Shown piece after piece: positions 4,905 to 40,750 of a stretch of DNA of 64,000 bases. Made by a program: the position numbers and the translations under genes. The first letter of the stretch is position 1. Every line of letters begins with the position of its first letter. The stretch comes from an uncultured archaeon (GTDB lineage: Archaea > EX4484-52 > JAADEF01), in contig CAYOWP010000004.1 in the NCBI GenBank assembly GCA_964407715.1, positions 1-64,000 of the forward strand, written 5' to 3'. The notes below the pieces were generated by a model. That model was not told the DNA's origin. It searched no databases and was given only the letters and a program-made list of their open reading frames with translations.

Positions 4905-5455
4905 TCTACATCTCAAGGTGATCTTTTGAGATGTTATGCTTTCCGTTAACACTCTTATTAAAAATTTTTATTTTTGGTTAACGCGAAAAATCGCTAACAT
5001 AAAGGTTTTGGGGCATGCTATCCTTTTTTTTAGAGGTTAGGTGCTTCCCAACCGCTTTGAAGGGTTATCATACTCCAATACTCCTTTTCTATGGGCTATT
5101 GTCCCGTTAACCATATTTTTATTTAAAGGATATTGTTAACGCAGAGGAATCGCTTTTCCAGAGGTTTCGGAGCAGCTAACCCACTTAAAAAGATTAGCCG
5201 CTTCATGCACGTGTATAAAAGGTTAGCTTCTGTAAGATGTCTTGTGAGAAGATATTCTTCCACTTAACCATTTTTAAAATAAAAATTGGTTAACGCGAGG
5301 AGATCGCTAACACAAAGGCTTTGGAGCACCTAACCTCTTCTAGGGGTTAGCTGCTTCCTAACCACTTTCAAAGGTTAGCTTCTGTAAGATGTCCTGTGAG
5401 GAAGTATTCCTCCCCTTAACCATTTTTTAAATAAAAATTGGTTAACGGGAAGAAA
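4905..5455 (+). repeat. Tandem array A1 of ~155-bp modular palindromic units
   Basis: GTTAAC hairpin 3' arms at 4976, 5134, 5288, 5440 (spacing 158/154/152); intervening CTAACC..GGTTAG palindromes; homologous to the arrays at 16.9, 24.1 and 40.1 kb. Confidence 0.9.
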
Positions 5456-5539
5456 ATCATTTATTTGTTAGCATCACTTGTTCAAATGTGCTCCATATCT
5501 TGAACCTATTTAAAAACAGAACCTTTTTTATTCCTGATT

Positions 5540-7336
5540 ATGGTAGAAGATAAGAGGAAGTATATTAGGCAGCCAATAATTTCTGTGTTGGCTCATGTTG
5601 ATCATGGTAAAACAACTTTATTAGATTATATAAGAAAAACAACTATTGCAAAAAAGGAAGCAGGGGGAATAACACAACACATAGGTGCAAGTGAGATAAC
5701 AAAAGATGCTCTTGAGGAAAAATGCAAGTCTCTATTAAAAAAATACAATATATCAATTCCTGTGCCTGGTTTGTTATTTATAGATACACCAGGACATGAG
5801 GCATTTACTTTATTAAGAAAGAGAGGAGGAAGTTTGGCAGATATCTCTATTCTAATAATCGATATAAACGAGGGAATAATGCCACAAACAAAAGAATCCA
5901 TAGAAATCTTAAAACAATACAAAACTCCTTTTGTTGTTGCTTTAAACAAGATAGATAGAATTCATGGTTGGATATCACATCCAGGAGAGGATTTCTTAAC
6001 AACATTCAACAAACAACGTGAAATAACCAAACAAGAGTTTTATAATAAGCTCTATACTTTAATTGGCCAGCTTAGTGAGTATGGATTTGAATCAGAATTA
6101 TATTATGAGATAAAGGATTTTACAAAGACCTTGGCATTGATCCCAATTTCTGCATTGACAGGAGAGGGGGTAAGTGACCTTCTTACTGTTATCATTGGAT
6201 TGGTAAACAAATTCTTAAAAGATAAACTATATATTGATCCTGAGGATGTTGGAAAAGGGGTTGTATTAGAGGTGAAAGAAACGCGTGGTTTGGGTGTAAC
6301 TATAGATGCTATACTCTATGATGGCTCTATTCATAAAGGGGATATATTAATCATTGCAAATCCTGATAATATTATTGAAACAAAGGTTAGAGGGATATTG
6401 AAACCAGCACCTATGCAAGAACTCAGAGCTAATATAAATTTCAAAACTTATGATTATGTGGTTGCTGCAAGTGGTATTAAGATAGCCTCAACTGGAATAG
6501 AAAATGTGATTCCTGGTGTATCTTTTGTTTGTTTAAGAAAGGATAGTAAAAAGGAAGATAGAGAGAGATATATCTCTGAGTTAAGAAAAGATGTGGAAAC
6601 AGTTTCTTTTAGTAAGGATGTAGAGGGAGTGGTTATAAAAGGAGATGCCCTTGGTAGTTTGGAAGCTATAGTGAATGTTTTCAAGAGAAAAGGAATATCA
6701 ATAAGAGAGGCTGCCATAGGAAACATAACAAAAAAGGATATTATGCTTCTGGAGAACATGCCAGAAGAAAAAAGAATTGCAATAGGATTCAATGTGAAAA
6801 TTGATGAGGATGCGATGGAATTGGCAAAAAAGAATAATGTAAAGGTCATTATTTCTAAGGTTATTTATCATATCTTGGAGGAGTATGAGAAATACCTTGA
6901 AGAGCTTCGTGCTGAGAAAGAAAAAAAGATTCTTGAGGGAGTTGTTTATCCATTCAAGATGAAATTTTTGGAACATTTTGTTTTTAGACAAAGCAAACCT
7001 GCAATCATAGGGTGTGAGGTAGAGGTAGGAATTGTTAAACCCAACATCAGGATAATGAATCAAGAGGGAAAAATTATAGGTACTATCCTTGGGATACAAA
7101 TAAGAGGAGAAAATATAAAAGAGGCGAAACAAGGGGATACTATCGCTATATCTGTAGATAAAGGATTTGTTGGAAGAAATATAAAACCAGGCGATGAATT
7201 CTATCCTGTTATTCCAAAAGAACATTATAAAATACTTATAGAAAACATCTCATTACTCAAAGAAAATGAGAAGAACACATTAGATTATATTAAGCAATTA
7301 ATGAAAAAACATGATCCAAGATATGATATATTTTAG
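5540..7336 (+). CDS. infB: Translation initiation factor aIF5B (IF-2)
   Basis: RQPIISVLAHVDHGKTTLLD, EAGGITQHIGA, DTPGHEAF, NKID motifs. Confidence 0.97.
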   Translation: MVEDKRKYIRQPIISVLAHVDHGKTTLLDYIRKTTIAKKEAGGITQHIGASEITKDALEEKCKSLLKKYNISIPVPGLLFIDTPGHEAFTLLRKRGGSLADISILIIDINEGIMPQTKESIEILKQYKTPFVVALNKIDRIHGWISHPGEDFLTTFNKQREITKQEFYNKLYTLIGQLSEYGFESELYYEIKDFTKTLALIPISALTGEGVSDLLTVIIGLVNKFLKDKLYIDPEDVGKGVVLEVKETRGLGVTIDAILYDGSIHKGDILIIANPDNIIETKVRGILKPAPMQELRANINFKTYDYVVAASGIKIASTGIENVIPGVSFVCLRKDSKKEDRERYISELRKDVETVSFSKDVEGVVIKGDALGSLEAIVNVFKRKGISIREAAIGNITKKDIMLLENMPEEKRIAIGFNVKIDEDAMELAKKNNVKVIISKVIYHILEEYEKYLEELRAEKEKKILEGVVYPFKMKFLEHFVFRQSKPAIIGCEVEVGIVKPNIRIMNQEGKIIGTILGIQIRGENIKEAKQGDTIAISVDKGFVGRNIKPGDEFYPVIPKEHYKILIENISLLKENEKNTLDYIKQLMKKHDPRYDIF

Positions 7337-7410
7337 GGTGAGCCTTTAGGTTACTTTGTTGTTGCTAAAAAATAGAATTTATTTAAATCTGCAATCTAAC
7401 TCACAGCTTT

Positions 7411-8649
7411 ATGAAGGTGTATATAGAAACTTATGGATGTGCCGCAAATAAAAACAATTCTGAGATTATAATTGGTAAGGCATTAGGTGGTAGACATGAG
7501 ATAGTAAATGAGATAGATAAAGCCGATATTATAATCATCAATACATGCACCGTTAAGCACATAACCGAGCAGAAGATGTTCTCAAGATTAAAAAAGTTAA
7601 AAGAAAAAGGTAACAAGGTAATTGTCACTGGCTGCATGGTTCCTTATCAAAGCGATGAGATTGAGAGGATAAGCAAAGACTTTATCCAAATACCTTGGAA
7701 TGATCTTGACAGATTCGATAAGATTTTCCATATTAAATCATCACAAGCCAGAGATTTTTCTTTTAGCCCAGTAACAAGGATAATACAAATAGGCACGGGT
7801 TGTCTATGTAATTGTGCTTATTGCGCTGTAAAATTGATAAAAGGAAATATAAGAAGTAGAAGCATAGAAGATATTCTTCATGATGTAGAGAAAGCACTTT
7901 TGAGAGGATATAAAGAAATTTATCTAACCTCAACAGATAATGCAGCATATGGGTTTGATATCAATGTTAGATTGCCTGATTTGGTTAATGAAATTCTTGA
8001 AAGATTTGATGGGGATTATATTATAAGAATAGGTATGATGAATCCCTTAATACTAAAATTGTTTTATAAAGAATTCATGGAATTATATAGAGATGCAAGG
8101 ATATACAAGTTTTTGCATCTTCCTATTCAATCAGGTAGTGAAAAGGTTTTGAAAGAGATGCATAGGCCTGGAAAAATGGAGGATGTATATGCTATGCATG
8201 ATTCATTTATGAGAATCACAAAACATATGGGAAATTTTGCCACAGATATTATTGTAGGATATCCAACAGAGACAGAGGAGGATTTCAATAAAACGATGGA
8301 GGTTTTGAAGCATCTAAAACCTGACATGACCCATGTATCTAAATTTGGGCCAAGAAAAGGTACTGTTGCAGCAAAAATGAAGAAGTTACCATCACAAATT
8401 GTCAAAGAGAGATCACGAAAACTTTCATCTTTGGTTAGAGAGATTGCAAAAGAAAGAAATATGAGATGGATAAACTTGGAAACTGAGACACTCATAAAAG
8501 ATGTCACTCAAAGCGGTTTAATAGGTAGGAATAGATATTATAAGCCAATAGTTATCACAAACGAAAACAGTAAAAGATACTTGGGAAAATGGGTAAAAGT
8601 AAAGATTGTCTCTTGCACACATGCTCATCTAATTGGTGAGATTATATGA
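7411..8649 (+). CDS. tRNA methylthiotransferase, MiaB/MtaB family (archaeal e-MtaB type) radical SAM
   Basis: ETYGC, NTCTV, VTGC N-terminal cysteines; GCLCNCAYC radical-SAM motif; HLPIQSGS; C-terminal TRAM-like region. Confidence 0.9.
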   Translation: MKVYIETYGCAANKNNSEIIIGKALGGRHEIVNEIDKADIIIINTCTVKHITEQKMFSRLKKLKEKGNKVIVTGCMVPYQSDEIERISKDFIQIPWNDLDRFDKIFHIKSSQARDFSFSPVTRIIQIGTGCLCNCAYCAVKLIKGNIRSRSIEDILHDVEKALLRGYKEIYLTSTDNAAYGFDINVRLPDLVNEILERFDGDYIIRIGMMNPLILKLFYKEFMELYRDARIYKFLHLPIQSGSEKVLKEMHRPGKMEDVYAMHDSFMRITKHMGNFATDIIVGYPTETEEDFNKTMEVLKHLKPDMTHVSKFGPRKGTVAAKMKKLPSQIVKERSRKLSSLVREIAKERNMRWINLETETLIKDVTQSGLIGRNRYYKPIVITNENSKRYLGKWVKVKIVSCTHAHLIGEII

Positions 8650-9849
8650 AGATTCTCCATAAATTTCCTTAATTATTTTTATAATTTCATCTTTTCCAAA
8701 ACCACATAATGTTATAAAAGATCCTTTTAATCTTCCCTTGCTATTTTTAAAATAGAACTTAAAAAATTTTATTTGGTTTTTTGATTTCCAAAAAGTTTCT
8801 GGAAAAATCAAAGAAGCATTACTTTGATTACAAATTTTTAGTTGAATCTTTACCACATCCTCTGCCAATTTTCTTTCATTTTCAGTATTATCACTCGTAA
8901 CAATTATCGTGGAGCCATAATAGTCATAACCAGAAAAATTAAATAAATCCAAAGGACATCTAAGTCGGTGCTCATTTTTTATCTCATCCTTATATATCAA
9001 TCCGCCTCCCAAAGCTGCATGCCACCCCACTTTTCCATTATATTCCTCTTTAACTTCTGGTAAAATATTCCTTGCGAATTCCATCATTCTTAAACATTCC
9101 TTTTCTGTTATGTTTTCAGAATGCAATCCTAAAACAACTTCTGGCTCGTTTAATACAAAAAATAATTCTACCTTTTCTTTTTCTGCTAACTTTGCAGTAT
9201 CAATGATCACTTCCTTTAAATTTTTCCAAAAATTCTCATTCTCCAAGATATCCTTTGGAAGCTCACCAAAAGAAATTGAACTTCCAGGTTTAAGCAAAAC
9301 AGGGGATAAAGCTACCGCGTAACCCATATTATGGAACCTTCTTATTTGCAATTTTGCTATAAACCTTGAAAAAGGAATTTCAGAGATTTCTCCTTTTTCG
9401 TTTACTTTATAAAAAATTATCAAATAAACAGAGTTCACATTTAGCTTTTTTAAATCCATCAAACTTAAAGGAAAACCAAAAAGTAAAAGAAAATAATGTG
9501 TTAGGGTGTTGAATCTCACTCCTCTAAAATATTCAGGATAATTTCTATGGTATTCGGTGAAAGAAATGCTTTGAGAAAGTATGATGATATAGGGAAAAGA
9601 AAAAATCAAAAAAGAGATTAAAAGAACTATGAGAAGTTTCTTGATGTTTTTTCTTTTGACTATTAAAAATAAAATCACCAATGCAAAGAGCATTGAAATA
9701 ATCAAAGAGATAATTGGTCTAAAAACAGAAAACAATAAGATGAGAAATAAAAATATTAAAATGATAAATATAGAAAAAAGATATTTAAAACATACACATG
9801 CTCCTCTTCTTATAATTCTATACAATGACTCTGTTTTGATTTTGACCAT
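8629..9849 (-). CDS. Membrane-anchored TIM-barrel glycoside hydrolase-like protein (clan GH-A-like)
   Basis: N-terminal TM helices; LFFVLNEPE (NE acid/base motif) and LIFPETFW (putative nucleophile E); DYYG strand. Confidence 0.55.
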   Translation of the reverse strand: MVKIKTESLYRIIRRGACVCFKYLFSIFIILIFLFLILLFSVFRPIISLIISMLFALVILFLIVKRKNIKKLLIVLLISFLIFSFPYIIILSQSISFTEYHRNYPEYFRGVRFNTLTHYFLLLFGFPLSLMDLKKLNVNSVYLIIFYKVNEKGEISEIPFSRFIAKLQIRRFHNMGYAVALSPVLLKPGSSISFGELPKDILENENFWKNLKEVIIDTAKLAEKEKVELFFVLNEPEVVLGLHSENITEKECLRMMEFARNILPEVKEEYNGKVGWHAALGGGLIYKDEIKNEHRLRCPLDLFNFSGYDYYGSTIIVTSDNTENERKLAEDVVKIQLKICNQSNASLIFPETFWKSKNQIKFFKFYFKNSKGRLKGSFITLCGFGKDEIIKIIKEIYGESSYNLTN

Positions 9850-9903
9850 AATACTAAGTATTGTAAAAATATTTAAATACTTCTTTCCAAATTAGAGAAT
9901 TTT

Positions 9904-10599
9904 ATGGTTAAGCAAAACAAAGATTCGCACATAAAATTCATATTTTTTATAAGTGTTATTTACACATTGTCAATTATTGCACTTACATTTTCTATTACAT
10001 ATTACTTGGATCAAATAAAGATAAGGGAAGTGCTTTATGATTATAAATATGAGGTTCTAACAATAAATGAGTATGATTTGTTTACAGAATATTTGGACAA
10101 TTATTTCAAAAAGAATAAATCTTTTTATTGTGAATATGCATATCCGTTATTGGATAGCCTAACTGAAGATATAAAAAGATTGGGAATAAAACTATCAAAA
10201 TATGGAAAATCCTCTTCATCTCTCTCTGAGATTGACTATGATTACTTAAAGAGAAAATATTATCTTGTTATGCTTAAAGAATATAATATATTGTGGAAAA
10301 TAAAGGCAAGATGCAACAATATAAATATAGGCGTGTTCTTTTTCAAAAAGGATCACGAGCCCTCTCTGATTATGGGAAGGGTTTATGAGGAGGTATCTAA
10401 GAGGATAAATAACACTTATATTCTCTCATTTGATATTGAATATGAAGATATAGCTCTTTTAAATTATCTTAAAAGCATATATTCATTAAAGAATTCAGAT
10501 GCTCCTGTATTCATACTTAACGACAAATGCATAATAAAAGGGGTTAAAAGCATAGATGAAGTGATTAAATATATAAATGAGAATAAATGCTTAAAATAA
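9904..10599 (+). CDS. Hypothetical membrane-anchored protein with thioredoxin-like C-terminus
   Basis: N-terminal TM helix; C-terminal DAPVFILND..IKG pattern; no CxxC. Confidence 0.6.
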   Translation: MVKQNKDSHIKFIFFISVIYTLSIIALTFSITYYLDQIKIREVLYDYKYEVLTINEYDLFTEYLDNYFKKNKSFYCEYAYPLLDSLTEDIKRLGIKLSKYGKSSSSLSEIDYDYLKRKYYLVMLKEYNILWKIKARCNNINIGVFFFKKDHEPSLIMGRVYEEVSKRINNTYILSFDIEYEDIALLNYLKSIYSLKNSDAPVFILNDKCIIKGVKSIDEVIKYINENKCLK

Positions 10600-10632
10600 A
10601 ACATTTAAAAATCACAACAATACCTTTAATAT

Positions 10633-11703
10633 ATGACACATAATTTAGAGGAAATATTAAGCAAAATCTCCTCTATAATAGATAAAAAGAACAGCATACC
10701 TAAGGGATATGTAGAGTTAGAAGATATTATGATGGCTGATTCTGAGCAGGACCCGCTTTATGATAAAAAACCATTTAAAGAAATAAACGCATACAATCTA
10801 GATGACATAAAACATCTTAAGATGGATATAGAGTCTTCTCTTTTTGGTGTTGATGGAAGCAGCAAAAGTGTAGTAGATACAAATGAGTTTGCGATTTTAA
10901 TGTGTAGGATAGTAGGTACAAATCTCAAAAAAAGATATATCTCTGAATATATTTCCTTTGCATATCTTGAAAATGAAAAGGAATATGTATTGGAGCATTA
11001 TTTTATAAGAGGAATGAGATTATTTGATGATGGAAAAATAGGAAATTTTGATGCATATGATACGAGATATACATTCAAAGGCAAACGTGCTGATCCAAAG
11101 GAAATAGCATCTATTCTACGTAAATTTGGAGAATGGAAGATAGTGGAGAAAATAATGGAGGAAGAGGAAAATGCTATCATAATCAAAGATGGAGGATTAC
11201 ACTCAACAGTAAAAGAAGAATCTCATCTCATTAATGAAGTAATCAAAAAGCAAAGAGATAATCTCTTTGCAGGATTAATTAAAAATAACCTGTTGATAAC
11301 TACGACTGGTAGAAATCTGATTTATGATGCCATGATATATGTTGAATCGAAATATGAATATAAGAGATGGTTGTTTGGAGAGATTGCCATAGGAAAATAT
11401 GATATTCACCCTGCTAAGATATTTATAGCAAAATTTCATGAGAGTTCAAGACCTTATAGAATAGACATCCCTAAATCCTTAGAAAAGGATAATGTGATTG
11501 AGTTAATAAATGCTATATCTCTCTATACTAATGATAGCGATTTTTTGGGATATCCATATATCTTGGTAATGGCTGATAGGGAGAGCAATATAAAGGATCA
11601 CGAAATTATTAAATATAAGAATGCTCTCCTGTATAAATCAAAGAAACTAAGAGAAATGGACAAGTTGTTTGAGGATATACATAAAATGTTATGGAAAATG
11701 TGA
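10633..11703 (+). CDS. nurA: NurA-family 5'-3' nuclease
   Basis: FGVDGSS, IIIKDGGL, GYPYIL.MAD motifs typical of NurA. Confidence 0.8.
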   Translation: MTHNLEEILSKISSIIDKKNSIPKGYVELEDIMMADSEQDPLYDKKPFKEINAYNLDDIKHLKMDIESSLFGVDGSSKSVVDTNEFAILMCRIVGTNLKKRYISEYISFAYLENEKEYVLEHYFIRGMRLFDDGKIGNFDAYDTRYTFKGKRADPKEIASILRKFGEWKIVEKIMEEEENAIIIKDGGLHSTVKEESHLINEVIKKQRDNLFAGLIKNNLLITTTGRNLIYDAMIYVESKYEYKRWLFGEIAIGKYDIHPAKIFIAKFHESSRPYRIDIPKSLEKDNVIELINAISLYTNDSDFLGYPYILVMADRESNIKDHEIIKYKNALLYKSKKLREMDKLFEDIHKMLWKM

Positions 11704-11709
11704 AGTGCT

Positions 11710-13677: not shown

Positions 13678-13723
13678 AAAGTTAATTATAATATAAGGAA
13701 ATTAAATATATTTTTTTAGAAAT

Positions 13724-14224: not shown

Positions 14225-14229
14225 CCTTA

Positions 14230-15541: not shown

Positions 15542-15591
15542 CTTTTTCACCTCCTCCACCAAACACCCACTAGCATAGGATTTTATTTTCT

Positions 15592-15771: not shown

Positions 15772-15880
15772 CCTCTCCCATCCTTCACTGCCAAATCTCT
15801 CAAGAATTAGGAATTATATTTTATAAGATGGGTAAAAAATTTATAAATTTTTTGAATTCGGGAGGCATTTCAAAAGTATT

Positions 15881-16854: not shown

Positions 16855-17140
16855 TGTTAACCTAATTTCAAAACTTGGTTAAGAGGAAAGATAAGCTCGT
16901 AGGAGGTCATCCAACAGCAGCTAACCTTTTTGATTGGTTAGCTGCTCCTAAAGCCCTTGTGTTAGCGATCTCCTCGCGTTAACCAGTTATTTTTAAAAAA
17001 TGGTTAAGGGGAAAATGTCCTCTTAATGAAGCACATTGCAGCAGCTAACCTCAGAAAGCGGTTAGGAAGCTGCTAACCTCTTTGAGTGGTTAGCTGCTTC
17101 AAAACCTTTGGGAAAAGTGGTATCTTCGCATTAACCAATC
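16855..17140 (-). repeat. Tandem array A2 of modular palindromic units (opposite orientation to A1)
   Basis: TTAACC hairpin arms at ~16856, 16978, 17130; perfect GCAGCTAACC-N9-GGTTAGCTGC at 16917-16945. Confidence 0.88.
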
Positions 17141-17195
17141 TCAGATCAGTTGCATTTCGGGGTGTAAAACTTGTGGTATCAAATGCGTCAATTAA

Positions 17196-17270
17196 CGAGC
17201 CCGAGGGGATTTGAACCCCTGACCTGCAGCTTAGGAGGCTGCCGCTCTAACCAAGCTGAGCTACGGGCCC
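17196..17270 (-). tRNA. tRNA-Arg (CCT)
   Basis: Cloverleaf GGGCCCG...CGGGCTC G; anticodon arm GCAGC-CT CCT AA-GCTGC; GGTTCAAATCC T-loop; CCA not encoded. Confidence 0.96.
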
Positions 17271-24012: not shown

Positions 24013-24060
24013 TTTAAAAATTTTTAGATTTTATCACCCAACAAGAGACTTCCTCATCAA

Positions 24061-24660
24061 AAGCCTTTGGAAAGTGATTTTCCCTGCGTTAACCAGTTAT
24101 TTTGATAAATATGGTTAACGGGAGAGAGAGCCATTTGAGAGAGCTGAGTATAGTATGATAGCCTTTGAAAGCAGTTAGGAAGCAACTAACCTTTAAAAGC
24201 GGTTAGCTGCTCTAAAATCTTTGTGTTAGTGATATCTTCCCGTTAACCAATTTTTTATTTTTAAAAATGGTTAAGGGGAAGTATACCTTCTCAAAGGATA
24301 TCTTACAGCAGCTAACCATTTCAAAGCAGTTAGGAAGCAGCTAACCTTTTAGGGAAGGTTACCATACTCCTAAGCCTTTGTGTTAGTGATATCTTCGCGT
24401 TAACCAATTTTTTATTTTTAAAAATGGTTAAGGGGAAAAATACCTCATCAAAGAATATCAAACAGCAGCTAACCTTAAATTGGGTTACTATGCTGTAAAA
24501 CCTTAGTTATAGTGATATCTTCGCGTTAACCAGTTATATTCAAATAAAAAACATGGTTAAATGGAAAACCTGACCATCTGAAAAACCATGGTAGAGCAGC
24601 TACCCAAAATAAATGGGTTAAGAAGCGAAAAGTTTCTGAAAAGGATAGTATGGAGCAACA
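24061..24660 (-). repeat. Tandem array A3 of modular palindromic units
   Basis: CGTTAACC at 24087, 24241, 24398, 24524 (spacing 154/157/126); 24219-24280 nearly identical to 24376-24437. Confidence 0.9.
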
Positions 24661-24668
24661 TGGATAGT

Positions 24669-24825
24669 GGCATTATCCAATCATTCTCCATTTGTTAAGC
24701 GGAAGAGTAACCTCTTAAAGAACCGCATTAAAGTAGCGAACCTTATAGAGCTGATGCGATTACCGCTATAAGTGCTATTTGCGCGTTAAATTTCCGCTTA
24801 ACAATAAAAAATTTTGGACAAAGCC
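24669..24825 (+). mobile_element. Short MITE-like element B1 (157 bp) abutting array A3
   Basis: Imperfect terminal inverted repeats GGCATTATCCAA...TTGTTAAGCGGAA / TTCCGCTTAACAA...TTGGACAAAGCC; co-linear with the elements at 47.7, 53.8 and 55.3 kb. Confidence 0.75.
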
Positions 24826-24910: not shown

Positions 24911-25153
24911 ATGATGAGGTTTGAGAAAATATCTCGATTAACAGAGATTTGTATTAAAGAGGGAGGTAACTTTTATGTTATCTTGAATGGCAATGTTTAT
25001 TGTGGGATAGCTCGTACTCGCGGTCCTGTAGAATGTCCATATTGCTGTAAAGAAAAAGACATAAATGGGTTATATAAGTGTACATATGAAGGATATACAA
25101 AAATTAGGGATATGATTCTCTACAAAAAACCGCTTAATGATAAGAAATTATAA
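24911..25153 (+). CDS. Small Cys-rich hypothetical protein
   Basis: GGAGGGAG RBS; C...C...CPYCC...C pattern. Confidence 0.6.
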   Translation: MMRFEKISRLTEICIKEGGNFYVILNGNVYCGIARTRGPVECPYCCKEKDINGLYKCTYEGYTKIRDMILYKKPLNDKKL

Positions 25154-26729
25154 AATTTTTTATAATTATATTAACAATATGAAGATTGAACATTCAGGAA
25201 CTTTTCCTTATTCAAAGATCCTTTTGTATGGAATGATAATTGAAATTGGATTGTTTTCATTTATAACATCTTGGTATTTTTATCCATGGGATTTTTTGTC
25301 ATATTTGCTAAATGGGGATTACTTATTTGGGAATGGAGAATATTATGAAATATACAGACCTCCTTGCCTCTCTTTTTTCCTCTTTCTATTGAAATTATTT
25401 TTTCAAAATAAATATCTTATATTATTTTCCTTTATTTTTATGTCATCAATATTTTTTATTTACTCTATAGAACATATCTTAAACTCATTACCCATCAAAA
25501 ATAGAGATCATGCAAGGTTGCTGATATTTTTTGTACTTGGTATGAATCCTGTCTTTATTGCTTTCTCTTTTATCCCATCGGGTACTGAAATCATTTCTAT
25601 AAGTTTCGCTATGTTAGGAATCTCATACCTTCTTTCTTCCAATGGCATAAAAGATGCAACATTAAGTGGAATCTTGCTCTCACTCTCTTCCCTAACAAGA
25701 TATAATTTTCTAATTTTGTTTCCTATCTTGTTTTTTCACAGAAAACTTAAGAAAATATTTTTTGCAATTGTTTCATTTTCTATGCCTTGGCTCTTCTGGC
25801 TAATATATAACAAAGTAATGTATGGTAAATTCCTTTATAGTTTTATAGACTCATATTTCCTTAATGTATACTATCGAGAAACAATATCACAATCACCTTC
25901 TTTCAATGAACTTCTTTTCTTATTCGTGATTATCATTACAACATCTCTTTTTTTAATATACGTGCTTAAAAAATTACTTTTCTATCATATAGAATACAAA
26001 AAGCAAATAATCGCTCTGCTTTTTATATCATTATATATTTTATTGACCTCCCTCTATACCTTTATTATTATGCCTCTAAAAATAAAGAGATATATTTATC
26101 CTATAACTATCTCTTATATTCTCTTTGTTCTAATCTACCAAATGCTAATATCTAGCAAAAGAAAAGTAAAAATCAACAAAAGAACCATAAAAATTGGAGC
26201 AATATCTTTTATCATCTTGCTTGTTTCTTTTAATATTTTTTATGCGCAATATCTCTCTTTTTATGAGTTCAAAAATCACTATGCTCCAATCCAAGAAGAA
26301 ATCGAAAATGTTTATGAATATATAAAAAATGCTTCCTGTATATACTCTGATTATTGGATTTATTATAATGCTCTTAATATTAAAGCATATCCTGAAGGAT
26401 TCTTATATGATCCGCTTACAAAATCTTTTGATACACGTAATCTCAATAGTAATTGTTCATACATTATCTTGCATGAAAATAAAGTAGATATCTTTCCTTA
26501 TTATAATGAAACCTTTAAAATGAAAGAGATAAATCAAACAAAGATATATTTTATATCCTCAGTACTCTTAAGGAAAGAAAGCACTCAAAATGCATACTTT
26601 AAAAGATATAAAAATAAAGTGGTCATAGATAACATATATTGGTATTCTTTGTTGTATGAAGATCCAAATTTATTTTATAAAGTATGCTCAGATGCTTTTG
26701 GCATTTTCTCTTTTGCAATGTGCAAGTGA
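25137..26729 (+). CDS. GT-C fold membrane glycosyltransferase (PMT/ArnT-like)
   Basis: Many TM helices; WD, YRPP, TE, LTRY, RY motifs; C-terminal soluble domain. Confidence 0.75.
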   Translation: MIRNYKIFYNYINNMKIEHSGTFPYSKILLYGMIIEIGLFSFITSWYFYPWDFLSYLLNGDYLFGNGEYYEIYRPPCLSFFLFLLKLFFQNKYLILFSFIFMSSIFFIYSIEHILNSLPIKNRDHARLLIFFVLGMNPVFIAFSFIPSGTEIISISFAMLGISYLLSSNGIKDATLSGILLSLSSLTRYNFLILFPILFFHRKLKKIFFAIVSFSMPWLFWLIYNKVMYGKFLYSFIDSYFLNVYYRETISQSPSFNELLFLFVIIITTSLFLIYVLKKLLFYHIEYKKQIIALLFISLYILLTSLYTFIIMPLKIKRYIYPITISYILFVLIYQMLISSKRKVKINKRTIKIGAISFIILLVSFNIFYAQYLSFYEFKNHYAPIQEEIENVYEYIKNASCIYSDYWIYYNALNIKAYPEGFLYDPLTKSFDTRNLNSNCSYIILHENKVDIFPYYNETFKMKEINQTKIYFISSVLLRKESTQNAYFKRYKNKVVIDNIYWYSLLYEDPNLFYKVCSDAFGIFSFAMCK

Positions 26730-29952: not shown

Positions 29953-29964
29953 AAGTGATGTCAT

Positions 29965-33363: not shown

Positions 33364-33382
33364 AATATAGGGAGATGAAACC

Positions 33383-34291: not shown

Positions 34292-34297
34292 AAGTAT

Positions 34298-34789: not shown

Positions 34790-35466
34790 ACTTTAAAGGA
34801 ATGTCTCCTTTATTATCTGGAGTGCTTTACATGACAATCATAGTTACAGGTATTTTGATAGTGATGGCATCCATTTATCCAAAAATAATGGATTTAAAGG
34901 AATACTCAAAAATAACAAATACAATAAAATGTGCTAGGAACATGGATTATGCTTTGTCTCTTTTAGAAAAATCATCTCTTAGAGGAGAACAGGAAATAGA
35001 ATGTAAAATAAAAAATGCAAAGTTGTCAATTAAAAATGACACTATGCTTTTTATATTTCCACATATTGATTATTTATCTCTTGACATATTCAAAAATGAA
35101 GAATATACGTTAAATGAAGGTGTTTATGTCTATGATAATGGAAGTTATTTTCTTATGGGAAACAAATACTTAGAAGTTAATTTTTCAAAGATATATGCCA
35201 ATAACATGATAAATATCTCGCAAATTATAAATAACATATATTATAAAAAGACTTCTAAAAATATTGATGGCTCCTCTTTATATTTCATATTAAATGATGA
35301 TCCCTCTATAAGCATAGGTAGAGGATATACGATAGCTGAGCGCTCTGGAGCATATCTAAAATATGGAAAAATAATTGCTCATGTGGAAAATGATAACGCT
35401 AAATATAATTTAACCTTTATTCTATATCCCTCGGCAGATTATATTATTATCTCTGTGGAGAGTTAA
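34786..35466 (+). CDS. Type IV pilin-like protein (class III signal peptide)
   Basis: MNFKG|MSPLLSGVLYMTIIVTGILIV matches the archaeal K-G cleavage motif followed by a hydrophobic helix. Confidence 0.75.
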   Translation: MNFKGMSPLLSGVLYMTIIVTGILIVMASIYPKIMDLKEYSKITNTIKCARNMDYALSLLEKSSLRGEQEIECKIKNAKLSIKNDTMLFIFPHIDYLSLDIFKNEEYTLNEGVYVYDNGSYFLMGNKYLEVNFSKIYANNMINISQIINNIYYKKTSKNIDGSSLYFILNDDPSISIGRGYTIAERSGAYLKYGKIIAHVENDNAKYNLTFILYPSADYIIISVES

Positions 35467-35501
35467 AAGTATATATTTAACAAATATCTAATAAAATATT
35501 T

Positions 35502-36722
35502 ATGATGTTAAAAAGAAAAGGAACAGAATCTTTTTTTTATGTGTTGTTAGCAGGTTTGGGAATTTTTATACTGATAGCTATAATCTCATTAAGTATTGAT
35601 TATGTGGAAGTAGAGCATCCAGAGGAAGAGATTCCATATCTCCTTAATAAAAAAGGCATAGCCGATACAATCAAAGAGAACAAGATATATTATTTTGATA
35701 AGTTTCTATTTAAATCCTTAGGTAATGTAGAGGAGAATAAAAGGACAATTTATATTGGAGATAAAAACATAGGAAATGTCCTGGCATATGGTGTAGTTAG
35801 AGAGAAACCCAAAATAGAGATATATAATGGATTGTTTGGTAAGAAAAATGAAATAATTTATTTTAGCACATATAATGCAAAAAAGGTTAGAATCTCTTTT
35901 GTTGTTAACAGAACAAACAGATATGGAAGATTGATCCTAAAATTTAATGGAAAAGAAATATTCAGGAACCTAACATATGAAGGAGAGAGAATATTGGTTG
36001 AGATTGAAAAAGGAATAAAAAATAAAAATGTTTTGGAAATTATGTGTGAATCATCTCTACCAAAAATATGGGCTCCAACAAAGTATGAGATAACAAACTT
36101 AAGAATTGAAGCATTGGATTATATATCAAAGGATGCTTACATAGAATTTGAGATTCTTCCAGAAGAATATCAAGGATTACGCTATGTTGAAATCAAATTT
36201 AATGTATTGGATACAAATGAATATGCTCCTCTCTCTTTTATAGTAAATGGAAAAAAGGTATTTGAGGATGTATTTGATGCTGGTGCAGAGCCATATAGAG
36301 TATGGTTATATAGAAAGGACAATCTTAAACCAGGAATAAATGTTCTAAGAATGGAAACATATAACTCATCATATTATGACCTCCTAAATGTAGAGATTAA
36401 CATATATTATATAGGAAATGCACATGTATATGTGGATGAGAGTAATTTCAATATAAATCCTGATGATTATGAGTTTATAGAAAAGAATAAGGATATTTTA
36501 GAGGGAGTTATCGAAATCAACACAAGAAGCATAAATCTTGATAAGGGCATAGTTTTCTATATTAATGGTGCTCGATACACTATCAGCAACTTAAGGAGTT
36601 ATGCATCAAATTATCTCACATTTGATGTTGATCTCCTTAGAAAAGGTGTAAATTATCTGAGATGGGAAACACAAGGAAATTATGAGATAAAAGATATCAA
36701 GATAGGAGTTAGGAAAAAGTGA
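35502..36722 (+). CDS. Putative class III signal-peptide protein with repeated beta-sandwich modules
   Basis: KRKG|TESFFYVLLAGLG; three similar segments (FNG/VNG/ING ... KNVL/INVL/VNYL). Confidence 0.65.
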   Translation: MMLKRKGTESFFYVLLAGLGIFILIAIISLSIDYVEVEHPEEEIPYLLNKKGIADTIKENKIYYFDKFLFKSLGNVEENKRTIYIGDKNIGNVLAYGVVREKPKIEIYNGLFGKKNEIIYFSTYNAKKVRISFVVNRTNRYGRLILKFNGKEIFRNLTYEGERILVEIEKGIKNKNVLEIMCESSLPKIWAPTKYEITNLRIEALDYISKDAYIEFEILPEEYQGLRYVEIKFNVLDTNEYAPLSFIVNGKKVFEDVFDAGAEPYRVWLYRKDNLKPGINVLRMETYNSSYYDLLNVEINIYYIGNAHVYVDESNFNINPDDYEFIEKNKDILEGVIEINTRSINLDKGIVFYINGARYTISNLRSYASNYLTFDVDLLRKGVNYLRWETQGNYEIKDIKIGVRKK

Positions 36723-36728
36723 TATGCT

Positions 36729-37148
36729 ATGAGTGAAAAAAAACTTACATGTCCTGTTGAAGGATGCAACAATGAAGTATATCTTGAGATGATAGATGGT
36801 GAATTATATTGGATTGATAAGATGAATCCATTACAACATAGAGGTAAAGTAATGGAATTACCTTCTCCAAAAAGGGAGCTTTTTTTGGGATATGCATATG
36901 AAAAGGGAATATTAAAAAAGGATAGCGAAAAAAAAGATCAAATAATACAATACACAACTCAGAATATGAAAGTCCCCGTGGATAGCAAACAACACATCCC
37001 ATATGATGCAGCGCTACTTTTTCTTATAGGCATCATATATATAATCTTCTCCTTTATGCCATTTAATGAGTTTTCAAGCTCTCTTTTATATTTATTAGGT
37101 GGTTTCTTTATGATATTAGGCATTGTGGAGTATTTTTCACTTTATTAG
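36729..37148 (+). CDS. Small membrane protein with N-terminal CPxxxC motif
   Basis: CPVEGC; two C-terminal TM helices. Confidence 0.6.
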   Translation: MSEKKLTCPVEGCNNEVYLEMIDGELYWIDKMNPLQHRGKVMELPSPKRELFLGYAYEKGILKKDSEKKDQIIQYTTQNMKVPVDSKQHIPYDAALLFLIGIIYIIFSFMPFNEFSSSLLYLLGGFFMILGIVEYFSLY

Positions 37149-37156
37149 ATTAAAGT

Positions 37157-39004
37157 TTGGTGAATAGCATGATTAACATACTTTTTATAACCACGCTTTT
37201 TTTGGGATGGATGCTAAAATATATTGGATATGATACTCATTATTTTGTACTTTTAATCTTGTTCATAATTGCTTATGGTATATTCTATATAGGTATAAAA
37301 GAAAACAAACAAAAAAGATTTTTGGTTTATGTTTTGTCTTCAAGTTTTATAATTGTTGTGTTGTGGGTATTGGAGTACTTTGAAATCTTATCTCTATCTA
37401 TATATGACTCGCTCTTGTTATCTTTTTCTATATATTTGGCTGGAAGTATTGTTTCAAAACAAAAAAATGAGATAATAACAATTTTTTTAACAATCATTTT
37501 CATAGGTGCTTTTATCTTTTATGTGCCAAACATATCCTTGGCAGAGATATATGGGGGAGATTTAACACATCTTGATAACACCTTACAGAAGCTCCCTTTT
37601 ATTGAAAGGGTAAAGGAAGGTTACAACATATTGATTCAGAGCTTAAAAAATATGACATATTATGAGGATCTTGATTATCCTTCTGGTGCATCTAAGGAAA
37701 AGGAAAAAATAAGAGAATCTGTGAAAAAAGAGATAGATGATATTGTACATCTTGATATTTCCCCTTCCTCAATATCTCAAAAAGGAGATACGAAAAGCAT
37801 TGTCTCGCTCTCTGCAAATAATCTCTTAAAAGATAGATATGCGAGAAATGTATATGTTGGTATGGATGTTGGAAGTGAGGGAAGAATGTATGGTCTTGAT
37901 GTGAATAGTGAAGAAGGATTCTGCTATGAAAATAATAAGAATTGCTATAGTGCAATAGACACAATACCTCCACAAGGATTTGCACCTGCTCTATTCGAGA
38001 TCATGCTTCCCCCATGTAAGAATGATTTTAATGCAGAAATTTATACAAAATATATCACTACAGCAATTGGTGAAAAGGTAATATTTGTAGATAAGGGAGA
38101 ATATAGAGATACTATATCATCAGAAGGTCCATTAACATTGGATATTGAACTTCTTCCAAAGAGACTTACATATCCAGGAGAGGGAGACATGAAATTCATT
38201 ATCAATATCTACTCATTGCTTAATAGCAATCAGTTTGAGAATCAACATGCATATTACAAATATTTATTTCTTTCTATTCCAAAAGAGATAAATCTTGAAA
38301 GGGATTCAACATATTGTCCTTATCAAAAATATAGAGAGGAAGGAGGAAATACAATATATCTTTTTGAAATCAGAGATGAACTTCAATGCTTTGATAAAAA
38401 TACTATTGGAGTGTTAACATGTAAAGCACAAATACCTGAAGAGAGGGTTGATGAGTTTATAAAAGGATATAAGACATTTAGAGTTTATGTACCATATATA
38501 TTTTATGGATCTTTTCCTTATAAAATAGAAACAATAAGTGATAAAGAATGTGAGAATGTCTTTAAGAAAAACACATTTGGATTGAGTGATGTAGAGTTTT
38601 TAAATAAAAGAGGATATTTAATCTCCTTCAGAAAAACATATAATGAAAAGGAAACAATAAACTTAGAAGATTTAGTAAGCGAGATGATAGATTTTTGTCA
38701 TAATATCTTTGAAGGATCTTTTTCTGATCATGAATGTGCTTATGTTGTATTAAAAGGATATAAAGGAAAATTAAACATAGATTCATCAAGGTTCTCAAAG
38801 AGTTCAAAAGATAAGGATAAAGTTGTGTTACAAAAAGATAGTTCCTTAGATGATATCTTATCTAACTTGGAAAAGATATATGGAAATGAAATGGAAAAAG
38901 ATGTGGAAATAATAAACAATTATGATGGTGAAGGAGATCTAAGTATAGATGTAAAATATAAATTTGATTGTAGAGGTGGTAAAATAGTGGTTATCTTTGA
39001 ATGA
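37157..39004 (+). CDS. Membrane protein with large Cys-containing extracellular region
   Basis: About five N-terminal TM helices followed by a beta-rich domain; start may be 37169. Confidence 0.7.
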   Translation: MVNSMINILFITTLFLGWMLKYIGYDTHYFVLLILFIIAYGIFYIGIKENKQKRFLVYVLSSSFIIVVLWVLEYFEILSLSIYDSLLLSFSIYLAGSIVSKQKNEIITIFLTIIFIGAFIFYVPNISLAEIYGGDLTHLDNTLQKLPFIERVKEGYNILIQSLKNMTYYEDLDYPSGASKEKEKIRESVKKEIDDIVHLDISPSSISQKGDTKSIVSLSANNLLKDRYARNVYVGMDVGSEGRMYGLDVNSEEGFCYENNKNCYSAIDTIPPQGFAPALFEIMLPPCKNDFNAEIYTKYITTAIGEKVIFVDKGEYRDTISSEGPLTLDIELLPKRLTYPGEGDMKFIINIYSLLNSNQFENQHAYYKYLFLSIPKEINLERDSTYCPYQKYREEGGNTIYLFEIRDELQCFDKNTIGVLTCKAQIPEERVDEFIKGYKTFRVYVPYIFYGSFPYKIETISDKECENVFKKNTFGLSDVEFLNKRGYLISFRKTYNEKETINLEDLVSEMIDFCHNIFEGSFSDHECAYVVLKGYKGKLNIDSSRFSKSSKDKDKVVLQKDSSLDDILSNLEKIYGNEMEKDVEIINNYDGEGDLSIDVKYKFDCRGGKIVVIFE

Positions 39005-39019
39005 ATTTGGAGGTGAGTT

Positions 39020-40036
39020 ATGAAAAAAAACTATAAGAGTTTATCGGTAATAAGCATATTGTTTTATCTTGCATTATTATCTGTGATAGTAGTCATGCTT
39101 GTTATTGCTACAAAAAAGCATGTCTCATTTTTTGGAAATTTCTTTGGTGAAACCTCTGAACAATCCGCGGCTTATAATAGATGTCTCACTTATTGCCTTT
39201 CTGCATCCCCAAAAGACAAGTGCAAATATGGAGATAAAGAGATTTTATGTGCAGCATTTTTAAGCGTTTTTGGTTCTTCCTTTGTTTTTGATGATGAAAT
39301 ATTTAATGAAGGAAGTTTAACAGCATTAGGCATCAAAAAGGAAAACTTAGTAAGTAATGTTGGAAGTTCTGAAGAATACAAATGTAAGATTTATGATTTC
39401 TTAAATATAGAAAAAAGAACCTTAGGCAAAGGTATAGGTATCCCATCTTTGGATGATATAAGAAAGAGTGTTGAGAGAACCATAGAGAAATATGGCTCAG
39501 CTATAGAGGAGATATCAGAAAACGAGGGTATTGATCCTTGTATTCTTGTGAGCACAGTAGCAATTGAGAGTTCTGGGGGAGTTGTTAAAAGAACAAAATA
39601 TATCTCTTGTGGAATTACAATGATTACCCCACAAAATTTGAGATCATTGGGATATTGTAATGCAAAAGAAAGTGATAAAGAATGTTGTGAAAAGATAGCT
39701 AAGAATGATAGAGCTGCCATTGAGTTAAGCGTTAAACTTTTTAAAAGGTTTGAGAATAACGTGAATCAATACATCTTTAAGAACAACTATCCTATAGATG
39801 AAAATGGAGTTTTCAAGTTGGCATATCTTTTCGCATATTATAATGGTGGTGGAAGTTGCATGGGTCCATCTAAAAGTTGCAGTTTTACATCTTGTAAAAA
39901 CTTAAAGGAAGACTTAAGAGGATTTGATAGCATTCCAATATTCATGTGTGCCTATAAACCTGGAGGTTGCATCGAAACTCAAGCGCATGTTACTAAATCT
40001 CTCTATGCATATAAAATATGTAAGGAGACGTGGTAG
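39020..40036 (+). CDS. Membrane-anchored lytic transglycosylase (SLT/lysozyme-like) domain protein
   Basis: GGAGGTGA RBS; N-terminal hydrophobic helix; Y..AI...S...GIDP.IL...VAIESSG (catalytic ES), GITMITP (GLMQ-equivalent), AYYNGG (AYNAG-equivalent). Confidence 0.75.
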   Translation: MKKNYKSLSVISILFYLALLSVIVVMLVIATKKHVSFFGNFFGETSEQSAAYNRCLTYCLSASPKDKCKYGDKEILCAAFLSVFGSSFVFDDEIFNEGSLTALGIKKENLVSNVGSSEEYKCKIYDFLNIEKRTLGKGIGIPSLDDIRKSVERTIEKYGSAIEEISENEGIDPCILVSTVAIESSGGVVKRTKYISCGITMITPQNLRSLGYCNAKESDKECCEKIAKNDRAAIELSVKLFKRFENNVNQYIFKNNYPIDENGVFKLAYLFAYYNGGGSCMGPSKSCSFTSCKNLKEDLRGFDSIPIFMCAYKPGGCIETQAHVTKSLYAYKICKETW

Positions 40037-40057
40037 TCAATTGCAATGTGAGCTTCT

Positions 40058-40750
40058 CTAACACAACTTTTTAGATGTTATCTCGCCTGTTAACCATAAT
40101 TTGTTGAAAATGGTTAACGGGAAGAAATCGCTCTTCCAAAGCTTTGCGGCGGGATATCCTTTTTTGAAGGTTAGGTGCTTCACAACCGCTTTGAAATGTT
40201 AGCTGCTCTTATGTGTTTTCTTAGAGGGTTAGGTTTCCCGTTAACCAATTTTTTATTGAGAAGATTATGGTTAACGGGAAGAAATCGCTATCACAAAAGT
40301 TTTTTTGAGTGCGCTATCCTCTTTTAAAAGGTTATCTGCTTCCTAACCGGTTTATTAGGTTAGCTGCTCTTATGTGCTTCATTAAGGTGACATCTTCCCG
40401 TTAACCAATTTTTTATTGAGAAGATTATGGTTAACGGGAAGAAATCGCTATCACTAAGGCTTCGCAGCATGCTAACCTTTATCAAGGGTTAGCTGCTTCC
40501 AAACCGCTTTAAAAGGTTAGCTGCTCTTATGTGTTTTCTTAGAGGGTTAGGTTTCCCGTTAACCATATTTTTATTGAGAAGATTATGGTTAACGGGAAGA
40601 AATCGCTCTTCCAAAGCTTTGCAGCATGCTAACCTTTATCAAGGGTTATCTGCTTCCAAACCGCTCTGAAAGGTTAGCTGCTGTAATATGCTTCATTAAG
40701 ATGACCTTTACCCTTTAATCAACTTTAAAAAAGAAATGTCTTGATAACGC
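40058..40750 (+). repeat. Tandem array A4 of ~158-bp modular palindromic units (best conserved)
   Basis: GGTTAACGGG at 40112, 40269, 40429, 40587 (spacing 157/160/158); 40235-40294 identical to 40395-40454. Confidence 0.93.

Follow-up and report, generated by a model that had tools for sequence, protein, structure and literature searches.

What are the tandem arrays of palindromes that lie between genes in this small archaeal genome from hydrothermal-vent samples, and how did they arise? The initial annotation described four such arrays in a window of 64 kb (the whole stretch of DNA analysed, 64,000 nucleotides), and nhmmer recovered all four where they had been placed (Table 1). Tandem Repeats Finder reported a period of 157 at 24164-24474 (2.0 copies, 85% matches) and at 40110-40682 (3.6 copies, 82%). 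The window contains 22 matches to GGTTAACGGG with at most one mismatch, where 0.61 would be expected, and 0/100 shuffles reach 22; 21 of these matches are inside the four arrays and one is at 54005. A1 sits between the divergent genes for PheRS-beta (3173-4819, -) and aIF5B (5540-7336, +) and has degenerate edges, A2 is flanked by a gene for a NOP2-like methyltransferase and one for a tRNA (17196-17270, -), and A3 is directly followed by an element of a second family, B. The edges of all four arrays consist of complete hairpins or degenerate units. As first described, the arrays contain no long ORFs, and no transposase or cas gene neighbours them. CRISPR, already set aside in the initial annotation, was rejected because the 'spacers' are shared among units and not unique; conservation extends over the whole 127/156-bp unit, from unit to unit and from locus to locus, the units being only ~66-72% alike, and no cas gene adjoins any array in the window. 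The original inventory missed four further related elements, all from family B.

Table 1 Repeat features in the 64-kb window
Feature	Position	Strand	Description	Basis
Array A1	4905..5458	+	4 units	Sequence; nhmmer locus 4943-5458 (4 hits, all +)
Array A2	16856..17145	-	2 units	Sequence; nhmmer locus 16916-17145 (-)
Array A3	24058..24660	-	4 units and a degenerate tail	nhmmer locus 24058-24563 (-); TRF period 157
Array A4	40079..40750	+	4 units, best preserved	nhmmer locus 40086-40704 (+); TRF period 157
GTTAAC hairpin, example	40397..40438	+	3' repeat …TTCCCGTTAACCA, ~20-nt AT-rich spacer, next element's 5' repeat TGGTTAACGGGAAGA…	
Short palindromic module, example	40464..40496	+	GCAGCATGCTAACC-N9-GGTTAGCTGC	Sequence
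Family B MITE	24669..24825	-	Short (~157-bp) deletion form	GGCATTGTCCAATAAT-type inverted repeats on either side
Family B MITE	47731..47968	-	Near full length (~250-bp class)	Identity of 81-90% to 18 other copies
Family B MITE	53815..54190	-	376 bp; enlarged by extra internal family-A-like sequence	Terminal repeats
Family B MITE	55324..55452	-	Half element	Profile positions 130-251

The arrays belong to family A, one of two related repeat families in this genome, both short, palindromic and non-coding. The family A element is 105 or 135 bp long, with ends TGGTTAACGGGAAGA…TCTTCCCGTTAACCA that form terminal inverted repeats of ~15 bp, and is followed by a ~20-nt AT-rich spacer. Its conserved body holds one or two internal GCTAACC-N-GGTTAGC palindromes, and an optional module of 28-29 bp accounts for the 127- and 156-bp periods. 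Hairpin-to-hairpin spacing is accordingly bimodal across the genome, at ~125-130 bp (70 cases, 115-134 bins) and ~155 bp (57 cases, 145-164 bins). The repeat unit proposed in the initial annotation therefore stands, but its phasing as a hairpin plus four modules is better replaced by one in which an element bounded by terminal inverted repeats is followed by a spacer. Likewise, the 42-bp hairpin CCCGTTAACC-(~20 nt AT-rich)-GGTTAACGGG exists as drawn, not as a single module but as two adjacent element ends and the AT-rich spacer. The short module GCAGC(AT)GCTAACC-N7-9-GGTTAGCTGC is also present, and its ~28-29-bp step is visible in the bimodal spacing. Half-sites alternate, with two linker types between them. 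TTAACC and GGTTAAC are invariant in 51/51 units at four positions each, and the internal GGTTAGC/GCTAACC half-sites are >90% conserved, while the linkers drift to about 50-65%. This hints at continuing sequence-specific constraint, because a purely neutral satellite would not predict such half-sites amid drifting linkers.

A whole-genome profile scan, one of the checks first suggested, showed that the family is not only dispersed through the window but genome-wide. It comprises 258 units at 83 loci (30.1 kb, 3.5% of the 855-kb non-redundant assembly); 62 of the 83 loci have 2-8 units, and units within one array are co-oriented. The assembly is 92% complete at 854.5 kb, for a genome of roughly 0.9 Mb. 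Together, families A and B occupy 44.0 kb, or 38% of the non-coding DNA, and 453 of the 557 GTTAAC sites in the genome (81%) are inside them. Reduced genomes are expected to lose repeats, yet here two palindromic families make up 5.2% of a ~0.86-Mb assembly.

Repeats are present in 54/149 divergent but only 15/147 convergent intergenic regions. This enrichment mostly vanishes once scaled to the available non-coding length (repeat bp per non-repeat intergenic bp: divergent 0.55, tandem 0.35, convergent 0.43). The median distance of an array edge is 107 bp to a start codon and 52 bp to a stop codon, and arrays are co-oriented with flanking genes in 22 cases and opposed in 21. This placement fits tolerated DNA. 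Neither family was found in the 41 relatives searched, same genus included. In a same-genus genome the orthologous region upstream of aIF5B is 166 bp long and has no array, and the family A motif pattern had no second carrier among 185,579 species genomes.

Family B consists of 54 solitary repeat-bounded elements (13.9 kb) in size classes of about 150 and 250 bp. Its 27 full-length copies have ~35-bp terminal repeats, with GGCATTGTCCAATAATTCTTTATTGTTAAGCGGAA… at both ends, and matches to the end motif number 57 on the + strand and 58 on the - strand. The 9-bp flanks are identical at a mean of 5.09/9 positions, compared with 2.63±0.19 in 500 shuffles (highest 3.19), and 9/54 elements have a perfect 9-bp target-site duplication. 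Because of its terminal inverted repeats and target-site duplications, family B is a true MITE, and the duplications indicate transposition via a cut-and-paste, DDE-type route. Over 386 bp, the element at 53815..54190 matches C14:108-492 with 89.6% identity. Two copies of family B also have one visible inversion between them. No ORF lies between any pair of family B ends. Searches for PF01797, PF07282, PF01609, PF00872, PF00665 and PF13610 gave nothing that reached the cut-offs, and no autonomous element or transposase was found in this 92%-complete genome, in which 9/30 contig ends fall inside A or B repeats. The multi-copy ORFs of the genome encode beta-helix, glycine-rich and AAA proteins.

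Family A is homologous to family B. A single B copy used as an nhmmer query matched 10 units in true A arrays (E 6e-8 to 4e-6), and the A element is homologous to the two halves of the ~250-bp B element. Both families are short, non-coding and multicopy (258 and 54 copies), and family A begins with TGGTTAACGGGAAGA and ends with its complement in a plurality of loci. No target-site duplication was detected for family A, observed values being equal to shuffled ones for k = 8-10 at three offsets; we therefore class it as MITE-derived and not as an active MITE. We consider that family A is probably a MITE-derived satellite amplified in place, with a probability of roughly 60%. Family A would have descended from a MITE and, with units ~66% alike between loci, would be older than family B and no longer bear insertion marks. 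The element and its AT-rich spacer would be gained and lost together in place, by replication slippage or unequal recombination between units. The outcome would be arrays of 1-8 units in a single orientation, varying in length among near-identical populations, and these arrays may persist where non-coding space allows, clear of core promoters. The GGTTA(A/G)C half-sites may be, or may once have been, binding sites of a transposase or another sequence-specific protein. Several observations count against this reading: the missing target-site duplications, so that the route by which family A reached its 83 loci is itself inferred; the failure to find a transposase or autonomous element; the conserved half-sites; and the non-uniform array ends, both in the window and across the genome. 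GGTTAA is the commonest first motif (50/120 loci), but 40/120 start with TTAACC; TTAACC is the commonest last motif (59/120), but 32/120 end with GGTTAA. Among the 44 arrays with at least three units, about 28 end …TTCCCGTTAACCA (read by eye, unscripted).

Units are 71.6% identical within arrays and 65.6% identical between them, as amplification in place would predict. Of 93 units, 21 have an array-mate as their nearest relative, against 1.5% expected; for the other 72/93 it is in another array, so exchange between loci also occurs. At two loci unit number differs between near-identical vent populations, as drawn from short-read contigs, which can mis-join in repeats. In a 2513-bp contig from run X2 (depth 11.8), A4 lacks the 483 bp between 40132 and 40616 and has 9 different letters in their place, which makes it shorter by 474 bp, or 3 units. 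The metagenome contig L057 is colinear with C11 (99.1% and 96.2% in two aligned blocks) and has about 122 bp, one unit, more. The arrays are therefore possible strain markers and likely rearrangement hotspots. They also break the assembly, as the repeats at contig ends show.

Of the four roles put forward in the initial annotation, a REP/BIME-like one came closest. The arrays would be REP/BIME or IS200/IS605-derived (PATE-like) elements, moved as ssDNA hairpins by a HUH Y1 transposase (RAYT/TnpA). The description as non-coding, interspersed intergenic palindromes survives, but the Y1/RAYT partner is absent: Y1_Tnp (PF01797) had 0 matches in the genome, although 6/14 control genomes matched in the same search, and there was no TnpB above cut-off. 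The arrays resemble BIMEs in that imperfect palindromes are clustered, their arms alternate in orientation and the linkers are of two kinds (PMC2817692), and family A shares with REP/BIME its species specificity, extragenic position and hundreds of copies. Its missing target duplication is also as in IS200/IS605. Family A differs from REP/BIME in lacking a RAYT gene, in having units of 105-135 bp and not 20-40 bp, in being AT-rich and not GC-rich, and in being accompanied by a MITE relative that has target duplications. True terminal inverted repeats and 9-bp duplications, as seen in family B, are not made by HUH elements, and the hairpin stems lack compensatory change. Because the homologous family B has these marks, we favour a MITE origin over a REP origin, which we regard as extremely unlikely.

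The arrays could also be transcribed as multi-hairpin RNAs that act in regulation or processing, in the form of either long imperfect hairpins of ~120 nt or strings of short ones. The segment 40340-40660 folds far better than shuffles (-118.4 kcal/mol, z -9.0, on the + strand), but the - strand folds alike (-107.7, z -7.5), as any DNA palindrome would. Mismatches in the large stem are more often G-T than A-C (62 against 35 of 896 cells), which speaks for this role. However, the stems show no covariation: 87.7% of cells are paired compared with 87.8% in shuffles, and 9 cells changed on both sides compared with 14.3 expected. This applies both to the 14-bp stem of the large hairpin (86.6% paired in 51 units) and to the 11 pairs of the short module (89.1% paired). 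RNAalifold found almost no consensus structure (-0.7 kcal/mol). In Rfam, only 3 tRNAs reached the gathering score in the 64 kb; at a relaxed threshold all matches were far below it, the best being a generic miRNA-precursor hairpin (28.6 bits vs 245). Array orientation, as given above, is independent of neighbouring genes. The RNA role suggested in the initial annotation was thus not borne out, and we consider it very unlikely.

Conservation of the half-sites as sequence and not as base pairs would agree with recognition by a protein. The arrays may thus be platforms for a sequence-specific dimeric DNA-binding protein, with inverted GGTTA(A/G)C half-sites every 13-15 bp. The protein loaded there would be a chromatin protein, a regulator or the genome's only XerA-like tyrosine recombinase, and the arrays would act as recombination sites, insulators or organisers beside housekeeping genes. 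Xer/dif-type core sites of tyrosine recombinases, which the enzyme binds and cuts, consist of two ~11-13-bp inverted arms around a 6-8-bp spacer. The module arms of 12-13 bp around a 7-9-bp spacer resemble them, and the module AGCAtGCTAACCT-N7-AGGTTAGCTGCT has, judged from its sequence, a geometry compatible with Xer/dif-type sites. The genome has one gene of the Phage_integrase family (C1:72424-72912, E 9e-49). The concentration of GTTAAC sites in the repeats and the frequency of the repeats in divergent regions also favour this explanation, the latter with the scaling noted above. However, no protein partner was identified, unit number varies freely, the sister family B bears transposition marks, and the array is missing upstream of aIF5B in the same genus. 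As the repeat is absent from all 41 relatives, any function would be recent. On balance, a platform role appears unlikely. A lineage-specific, fast-evolving binding lattice, in which selection keeps the half-sites for a dimeric protein (the lone XerA-type recombinase or an unrecognised DNA-binding protein) that drives unit gain and loss and array spread without a transposase, seems to us quite improbable. If this were true, a reduced archaeal genome would possess hypervariable tracts for insulation or recombination next to its housekeeping genes. Strict half-site conservation without covariation nevertheless offers a handle for finding the reader protein, whether a transposase or a host factor.

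We also compared the arrays with known systems. As the initial annotation supposed, the literature searched holds no archaeal element with such an architecture. The MJRE repeats of Methanocaldococcus jannaschii resemble family A in being archaeal, extragenic and palindromic, with low inter-copy identity in an AT-rich host. To our knowledge they have not been described as tandem arrays; the likeness is one of general description.

Prokaryotic MITEs (e.g. SM of the archaeon Sulfolobus and QMITE2 of Coxiella) are likewise small, non-coding, multicopy and intergenic; they have terminal inverted repeats, and their palindromic body folds strongly. The 9 bp duplicated by family B is inside the 7-9 bp range given for QMITE2 in a 2024 review (PMC10969869). 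Unlike these MITEs, family A is organised as tandem arrays in which as many as 8 complete, co-oriented elements are separated by constant spacers; it lacks target duplications, and no transposase or autonomous IS was found here. The word 'tandem' is absent from that review (PMC10969869) and from a census of 183,232 genomes (PMC11602168). In the census, the densest archaeal genomes have 146 and 105 MITEs per Mb, and the densest bacterial endosymbionts devote up to 1.23% of the genome to them (PMC11602168). The ~365 elements per Mb and 5.2% of 854.5 kb found here are above these figures, which were obtained by different methods. In Volvox mitochondrial and plastid DNA, selfish short palindromes fill intergenic DNA in a small genome encoding no transposase (PMC2670323); they have no sequence relation to family A and are dispersed singly or clustered, with no defined 127/156-bp tandem unit.

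The closest precedent that we found for tandem arrays of whole MITE-like elements is in corals. In coral CMITEs, full-size MITEs and the intervening sequence are repeated head to tail, replication slippage and not repeated insertion is invoked, and the internal region is more conserved than expected (PMC2872659). Those elements are eukaryotic and piggyBac-related, whereas family A occupies a compact archaeal genome in which arrays dominate (62/83 loci).

All four intergenic arrays of the tandem palindromic repeat (family A) are present where the initial annotation placed them, as inspection of the sequences confirmed, and Tandem Repeats Finder recovered a 157-bp period at 24164-24474 and 40110-40682. 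The window contains 22 occurrences of GGTTAACGGG with at most one mismatch, where 0.61 would be expected (0 of 100 shuffles attain 22), and 21 of these matches fall within the four arrays. The assembly, in which the window corresponds to C4:1-64000, consists of 16 contigs (898,521 bp, 31-35% G+C) and is rated 92% complete. Because C9 is nearly a whole reverse-complement duplicate of C8 (43,696 bp, or 43.7 kb, at 100% identity), it was excluded from every count, and removing this redundancy of ~44 kb leaves a non-redundant size of ~854.5 kb. The genome is small and encodes archaeal PheRS-beta and aIF-2 equivalogs. Its sequence is carried by 5 runs, all of DNA and labelled as hydrothermal-vent metagenomes.

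A profile of the repeat unit gave 345 non-overlapping matches genome-wide, many of the 'single' ones being a separate element, family B. After these were split off, family A comprises 258 units at 83 loci (30.1 kb), with 2-8 units at 62 of the 83. Families A and B together occupy 44.0 kb, which is 5.2% of the 854.5 kb and 38% of the non-coding DNA. Of the 30 contig ends, 9 fall in a repeat, and the actual load is therefore likely to be greater. The arrays are genuine, and the scale of the finding is striking.

We mapped the half-sites as 6-mers, since a short model restricted to the hairpin lacked sensitivity, giving no match at 49 of 130 loci. Across all loci the map reads TTAACC -27- GGTTAA -43- CTAACC -15- GGTTAG -[13- CTAACC -15- GGTTAG]- 44 - TTAACC, where the bracketed 28-bp module is optional. 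Hairpin-to-hairpin spacing is bimodal for this reason (~125-130 bp, n=70; ~155 bp, n=57). The map and the spacing together bear out the ~29-bp modules of the initial annotation, and the short palindromic module of family A can be written AGCAtGCTAACCT-N7-AGGTTAGCTGCT. The whole unit is a long imperfect palindrome that folds far above shuffles on both strands (z -9.0 and -7.5). At the edges of loci, GGTTAA is the commonest first motif (50/120, with TTAACC first in 40/120) and TTAACC the commonest last motif (59/120). Among arrays of at least three units, ~28 of 44 terminate in …TTCCCGTTAACCA followed by unique DNA, as judged by inspection. These ends suggest a different phasing from that of the initial annotation, in which the repeating entity is an element of ~105/135 bp with ~15-bp terminal inverted repeats, followed by an AT-rich spacer of ~20 nt. 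The 42-bp GTTAAC hairpin that had been taken as the start of the unit does exist, but under this phasing it is rather the junction of two elements. The element phasing is not universal, as the array edges in the window show complete hairpins or decayed units.

Family B elements are solitary and measure ~250 bp, or ~150 bp in the deletion forms. They have terminal inverted repeats of ~35 bp, and 54 copies are bounded by GGCATTGTCCAATAATTCTTTATTGTTAAGCGGAA… and its complement; four copies lie in the window (Table) and ~50 more elsewhere in the genome. The two 9-bp flanks of a copy agree on average at 5.09 of 9 positions, versus 2.63±0.19 in 500 shuffles (highest 3.19), and nine copies have a perfect 9-bp target-site duplication. 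Flanks of this kind mark cut-and-paste transposition, and family B is therefore a true MITE. No target duplications were found at family A elements. Family B is homologous to family A and is an inverted dimer of family A-like units, with inner ends TTGTTAAsCGrGAAA, and one B copy used as a query matched 10 units in true A arrays (E 6e-8 to 4e-6). Family B copies are 81-90% identical to one another, whereas family A units share 71.6% identity within arrays and 65.6% between them, so family A is the older of the two. Simple expansion of B elements does not account for the A arrays, since no B end motif lies near 38 of the 44 arrays of at least three units.

On C7 the flanks of two family B copies have been exchanged, so that the sequence to the left of each copy is the same as that to the right of the other, as expected from inversion of the ~500-bp segment between inverted MITE copies. 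A short copy on C3 lies directly 3' of a tRNA-like sequence, inserted in the T-rich stretch behind it, with the perfect 9-bp duplication CGTTTTTTG.

Locations of family B copies and of other features (window positions are on C4)
Feature	Location	Remark
Family B copy	window, 24669-24825	
Family B copy	window, 47731-47968	
Family B copy	window, 53815-54190	
Family B copy	window, 55324-55452	
Family B copy	C7:54162-54412	exchanged flanks
Family B copy	C7:54925-55078	exchanged flanks
Family B copy, short	C3:63412-63569	behind tRNA-like sequence
Beta-helix paralogue	C10:16892-18421	
Beta-helix paralogue	C10:33854-36403	
Beta-helix paralogue	C3:37241-39127	
Beta-helix paralogue	C8:5676-7205	
Beta-helix paralogue	C14:18914-21677	
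Beta-helix paralogue	C2:111554-113226	
Beta-helix paralogue	C13:15-1085	
Phage_integrase gene	C1:72424-72912	XerA-like
ORF by array A3	window, 25137-26726 (+)	530 aa
ORF by array A4	window, 39020-40033 (+)	338 aa
aIF5B orthologue (L046)	G003:C175:54-1814	same-family relative

For 21 of 93 family A units the nearest relative belongs to the same array, against an expectation of 1.5%, which shows local duplication; the remaining 72 are closest to a unit from elsewhere, so there is also some exchange between loci. Comparison of the large arrays gave few matches of at least 85% identity (68 pairs), the longest wholly within arrays being 204 bp. Unit number varies at two loci between near-identical populations, in both cases as judged from short-read contigs. 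A 2513-bp contig from one run (X2) spans both flanks of array A4 in pieces of 1151 and 1353 bp, with 4 and 3 differing letters, respectively. In this contig, position 40132 is followed by 9 other letters and then by 40616, so that 474 bp net, equal to three units, are lost. At the second locus, a metagenome contig (L057) is colinear with C11 in blocks that are 99.1% and 96.2% identical and carries ~122 bp extra, equal to one short unit. We interpret family A as most likely a MITE-derived satellite that is now amplifying in place (probability of about 0.6).

Searches of the genome for Y1_Tnp, TnpB-type, DDE_Tnp_1, Transposase_mut, rve and DDE_Tnp_IS240 domains gave no match at or above cut-off, and each of the six matches several control genomes. 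A single Phage_integrase gene was detected, and no ORF lies between paired family B ends of the GGCATTGTCCAATAAT type. Multi-copy ORFs, considered as possible hidden transposases, instead encode NosD/beta-helix (surface-type), glycine-rich and AAA_14/DUF4143 ATPase proteins. The seven NosD/right-handed beta-helix paralogues, at least 50% identical, look like a variable surface-protein family. A conserved ORF of 110 aa that matches nothing in Pfam precedes three of them, and several of the seven adjoin family B elements.

The initial annotation recognised no described archaeal element with this architecture, and the literature searched yielded none either. The closest precedent in the texts available to us is the coral CMITEs, in which whole MITEs plus intervening sequence form tandem arrays ascribed to replication slippage (PMC2872659). 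As far as the available text goes, a 2024 review of prokaryotic MITEs places archaeal ones in Sulfolobus, Halobacterium, Haloquadratum and Desulfurococcus (PMC10969869). The word 'tandem' does not appear in that text, nor in the available text of a MITE census of 183,232 genomes (PMC11602168). In the same census text, the densest archaeal genomes have 146 and 105 MITEs per Mb, and MITEs make up as much as 1.23% of the densest bacterial endosymbiont genomes, compared with ~365 elements per Mb and 5.2% of the genome for A and B here, although the methods differ (PMC11602168). REP/BIME elements, as described in the source text available, likewise consist of clustered alternating palindromes but require a RAYT gene, which was not found in this genome (PMC2817692).

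Family A was not found in 40 relatives, by BLAST or covariance model, nor in 41 other genomes of the order, and a search of the same 40 for family B gave nothing beyond a chance match of 21 nt; many of the relatives' assemblies are fragmented, and repeats may be lost from them. The nearest genome, from the same genus, shares just 76% amino-acid identity in aIF5B, and its 166-bp aIF5B upstream region has no array. The architecture pattern GGTTAACG-N30-50-GCTAACC-N5-12-GGTTAGC has 42 matches in the organism's own genome. Among species genomes it revealed no second carrier, only 4 single matches in unrelated bacteria, all rejected by the covariance model. Metagenome contigs gave 5 single matches, and only L057, from the same population, is real. 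Plasmid and phage collections contained no match to the family A pattern, and the family B end motif was not found in viral contigs.

Compensatory stem changes, proposed earlier as a check on whether the arrays encode multi-hairpin RNAs, are missing from 51 re-phased and aligned units. Pairs were counted against shuffles over the 14-bp large stem and either of two alternative 11-bp stems, defined by hand since RNAalifold returned essentially no consensus structure for these units. Pairing was no higher than chance (87.7% of cells; shuffles 87.8%, with 367 of the 500 reaching the observed value), both-side changes occurred in 9 cells versus 14.3 expected, and no covariation was seen. What is conserved in the arms is therefore their sequence and not their pairing, with TTAACC and GGTTAAC showing little or no variation and the linkers drifting (mean identity per column 65%). 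A weak hint in favour of RNA comes from large-stem mismatches, with 62 G-T versus 35 A-C among 896 cells. Against it, in addition to the near-empty RNAalifold output and the missing covariation, array orientation is unrelated to that of neighbouring co-directional genes (22 co-oriented, 21 opposed). These tests lend no support to the RNA reading. Constant half-sites without covariation make a host role as a putative protein-binding lattice possible. The Rfam search suggested alongside the stem check gave just three tRNAs across the 64 kb at gathering scores. With a relaxed threshold over 40000-40800, the best match of an array unit was MIR2646, a plant miRNA precursor (28.6 bits versus a gathering score of 245), which is generic long-hairpin resemblance and not membership.

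Gene positions were taken from a longest-ORF heuristic (782 ORFs, 87% coding) in place of a gene finder. Repeats are present in 54 of the 149 intergenic regions between divergent genes, in 39 of the 450 between tandem genes and in 15 of the 147 between convergent genes (chi-square p 3e-16), and the load per base of remaining non-coding DNA is similar (0.55, 0.35 and 0.43, respectively). The median distance of array edges is 107 bp to start codons and 52 bp to stop codons, as would be expected if selection removes insertions into core promoters. Promoter donation by the arrays was rejected, as the start-codon distance is broad (interquartile range 79-175 bp) and has no fixed register. Restriction-site avoidance as the source of the GTTAAC content was also discarded, the observed/expected ratio outside repeats being an unremarkable 0.75. 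The ORFs next to A3 and A4 (Table) have no Pfam or NCBIfam match. Other array neighbours in the window are housekeeping genes, encoding PheRS-beta, aIF5B, a NOP2-like methyltransferase, ValRS, an aldehyde dehydrogenase and a GTPase. The aIF5B orthologues of four relatives (G001, G002, G005 and G006) have no in-frame TGA; L046, from a same-family relative, is read through two, and a recoded stop, a broken gene or an error in sequencing could each account for them.
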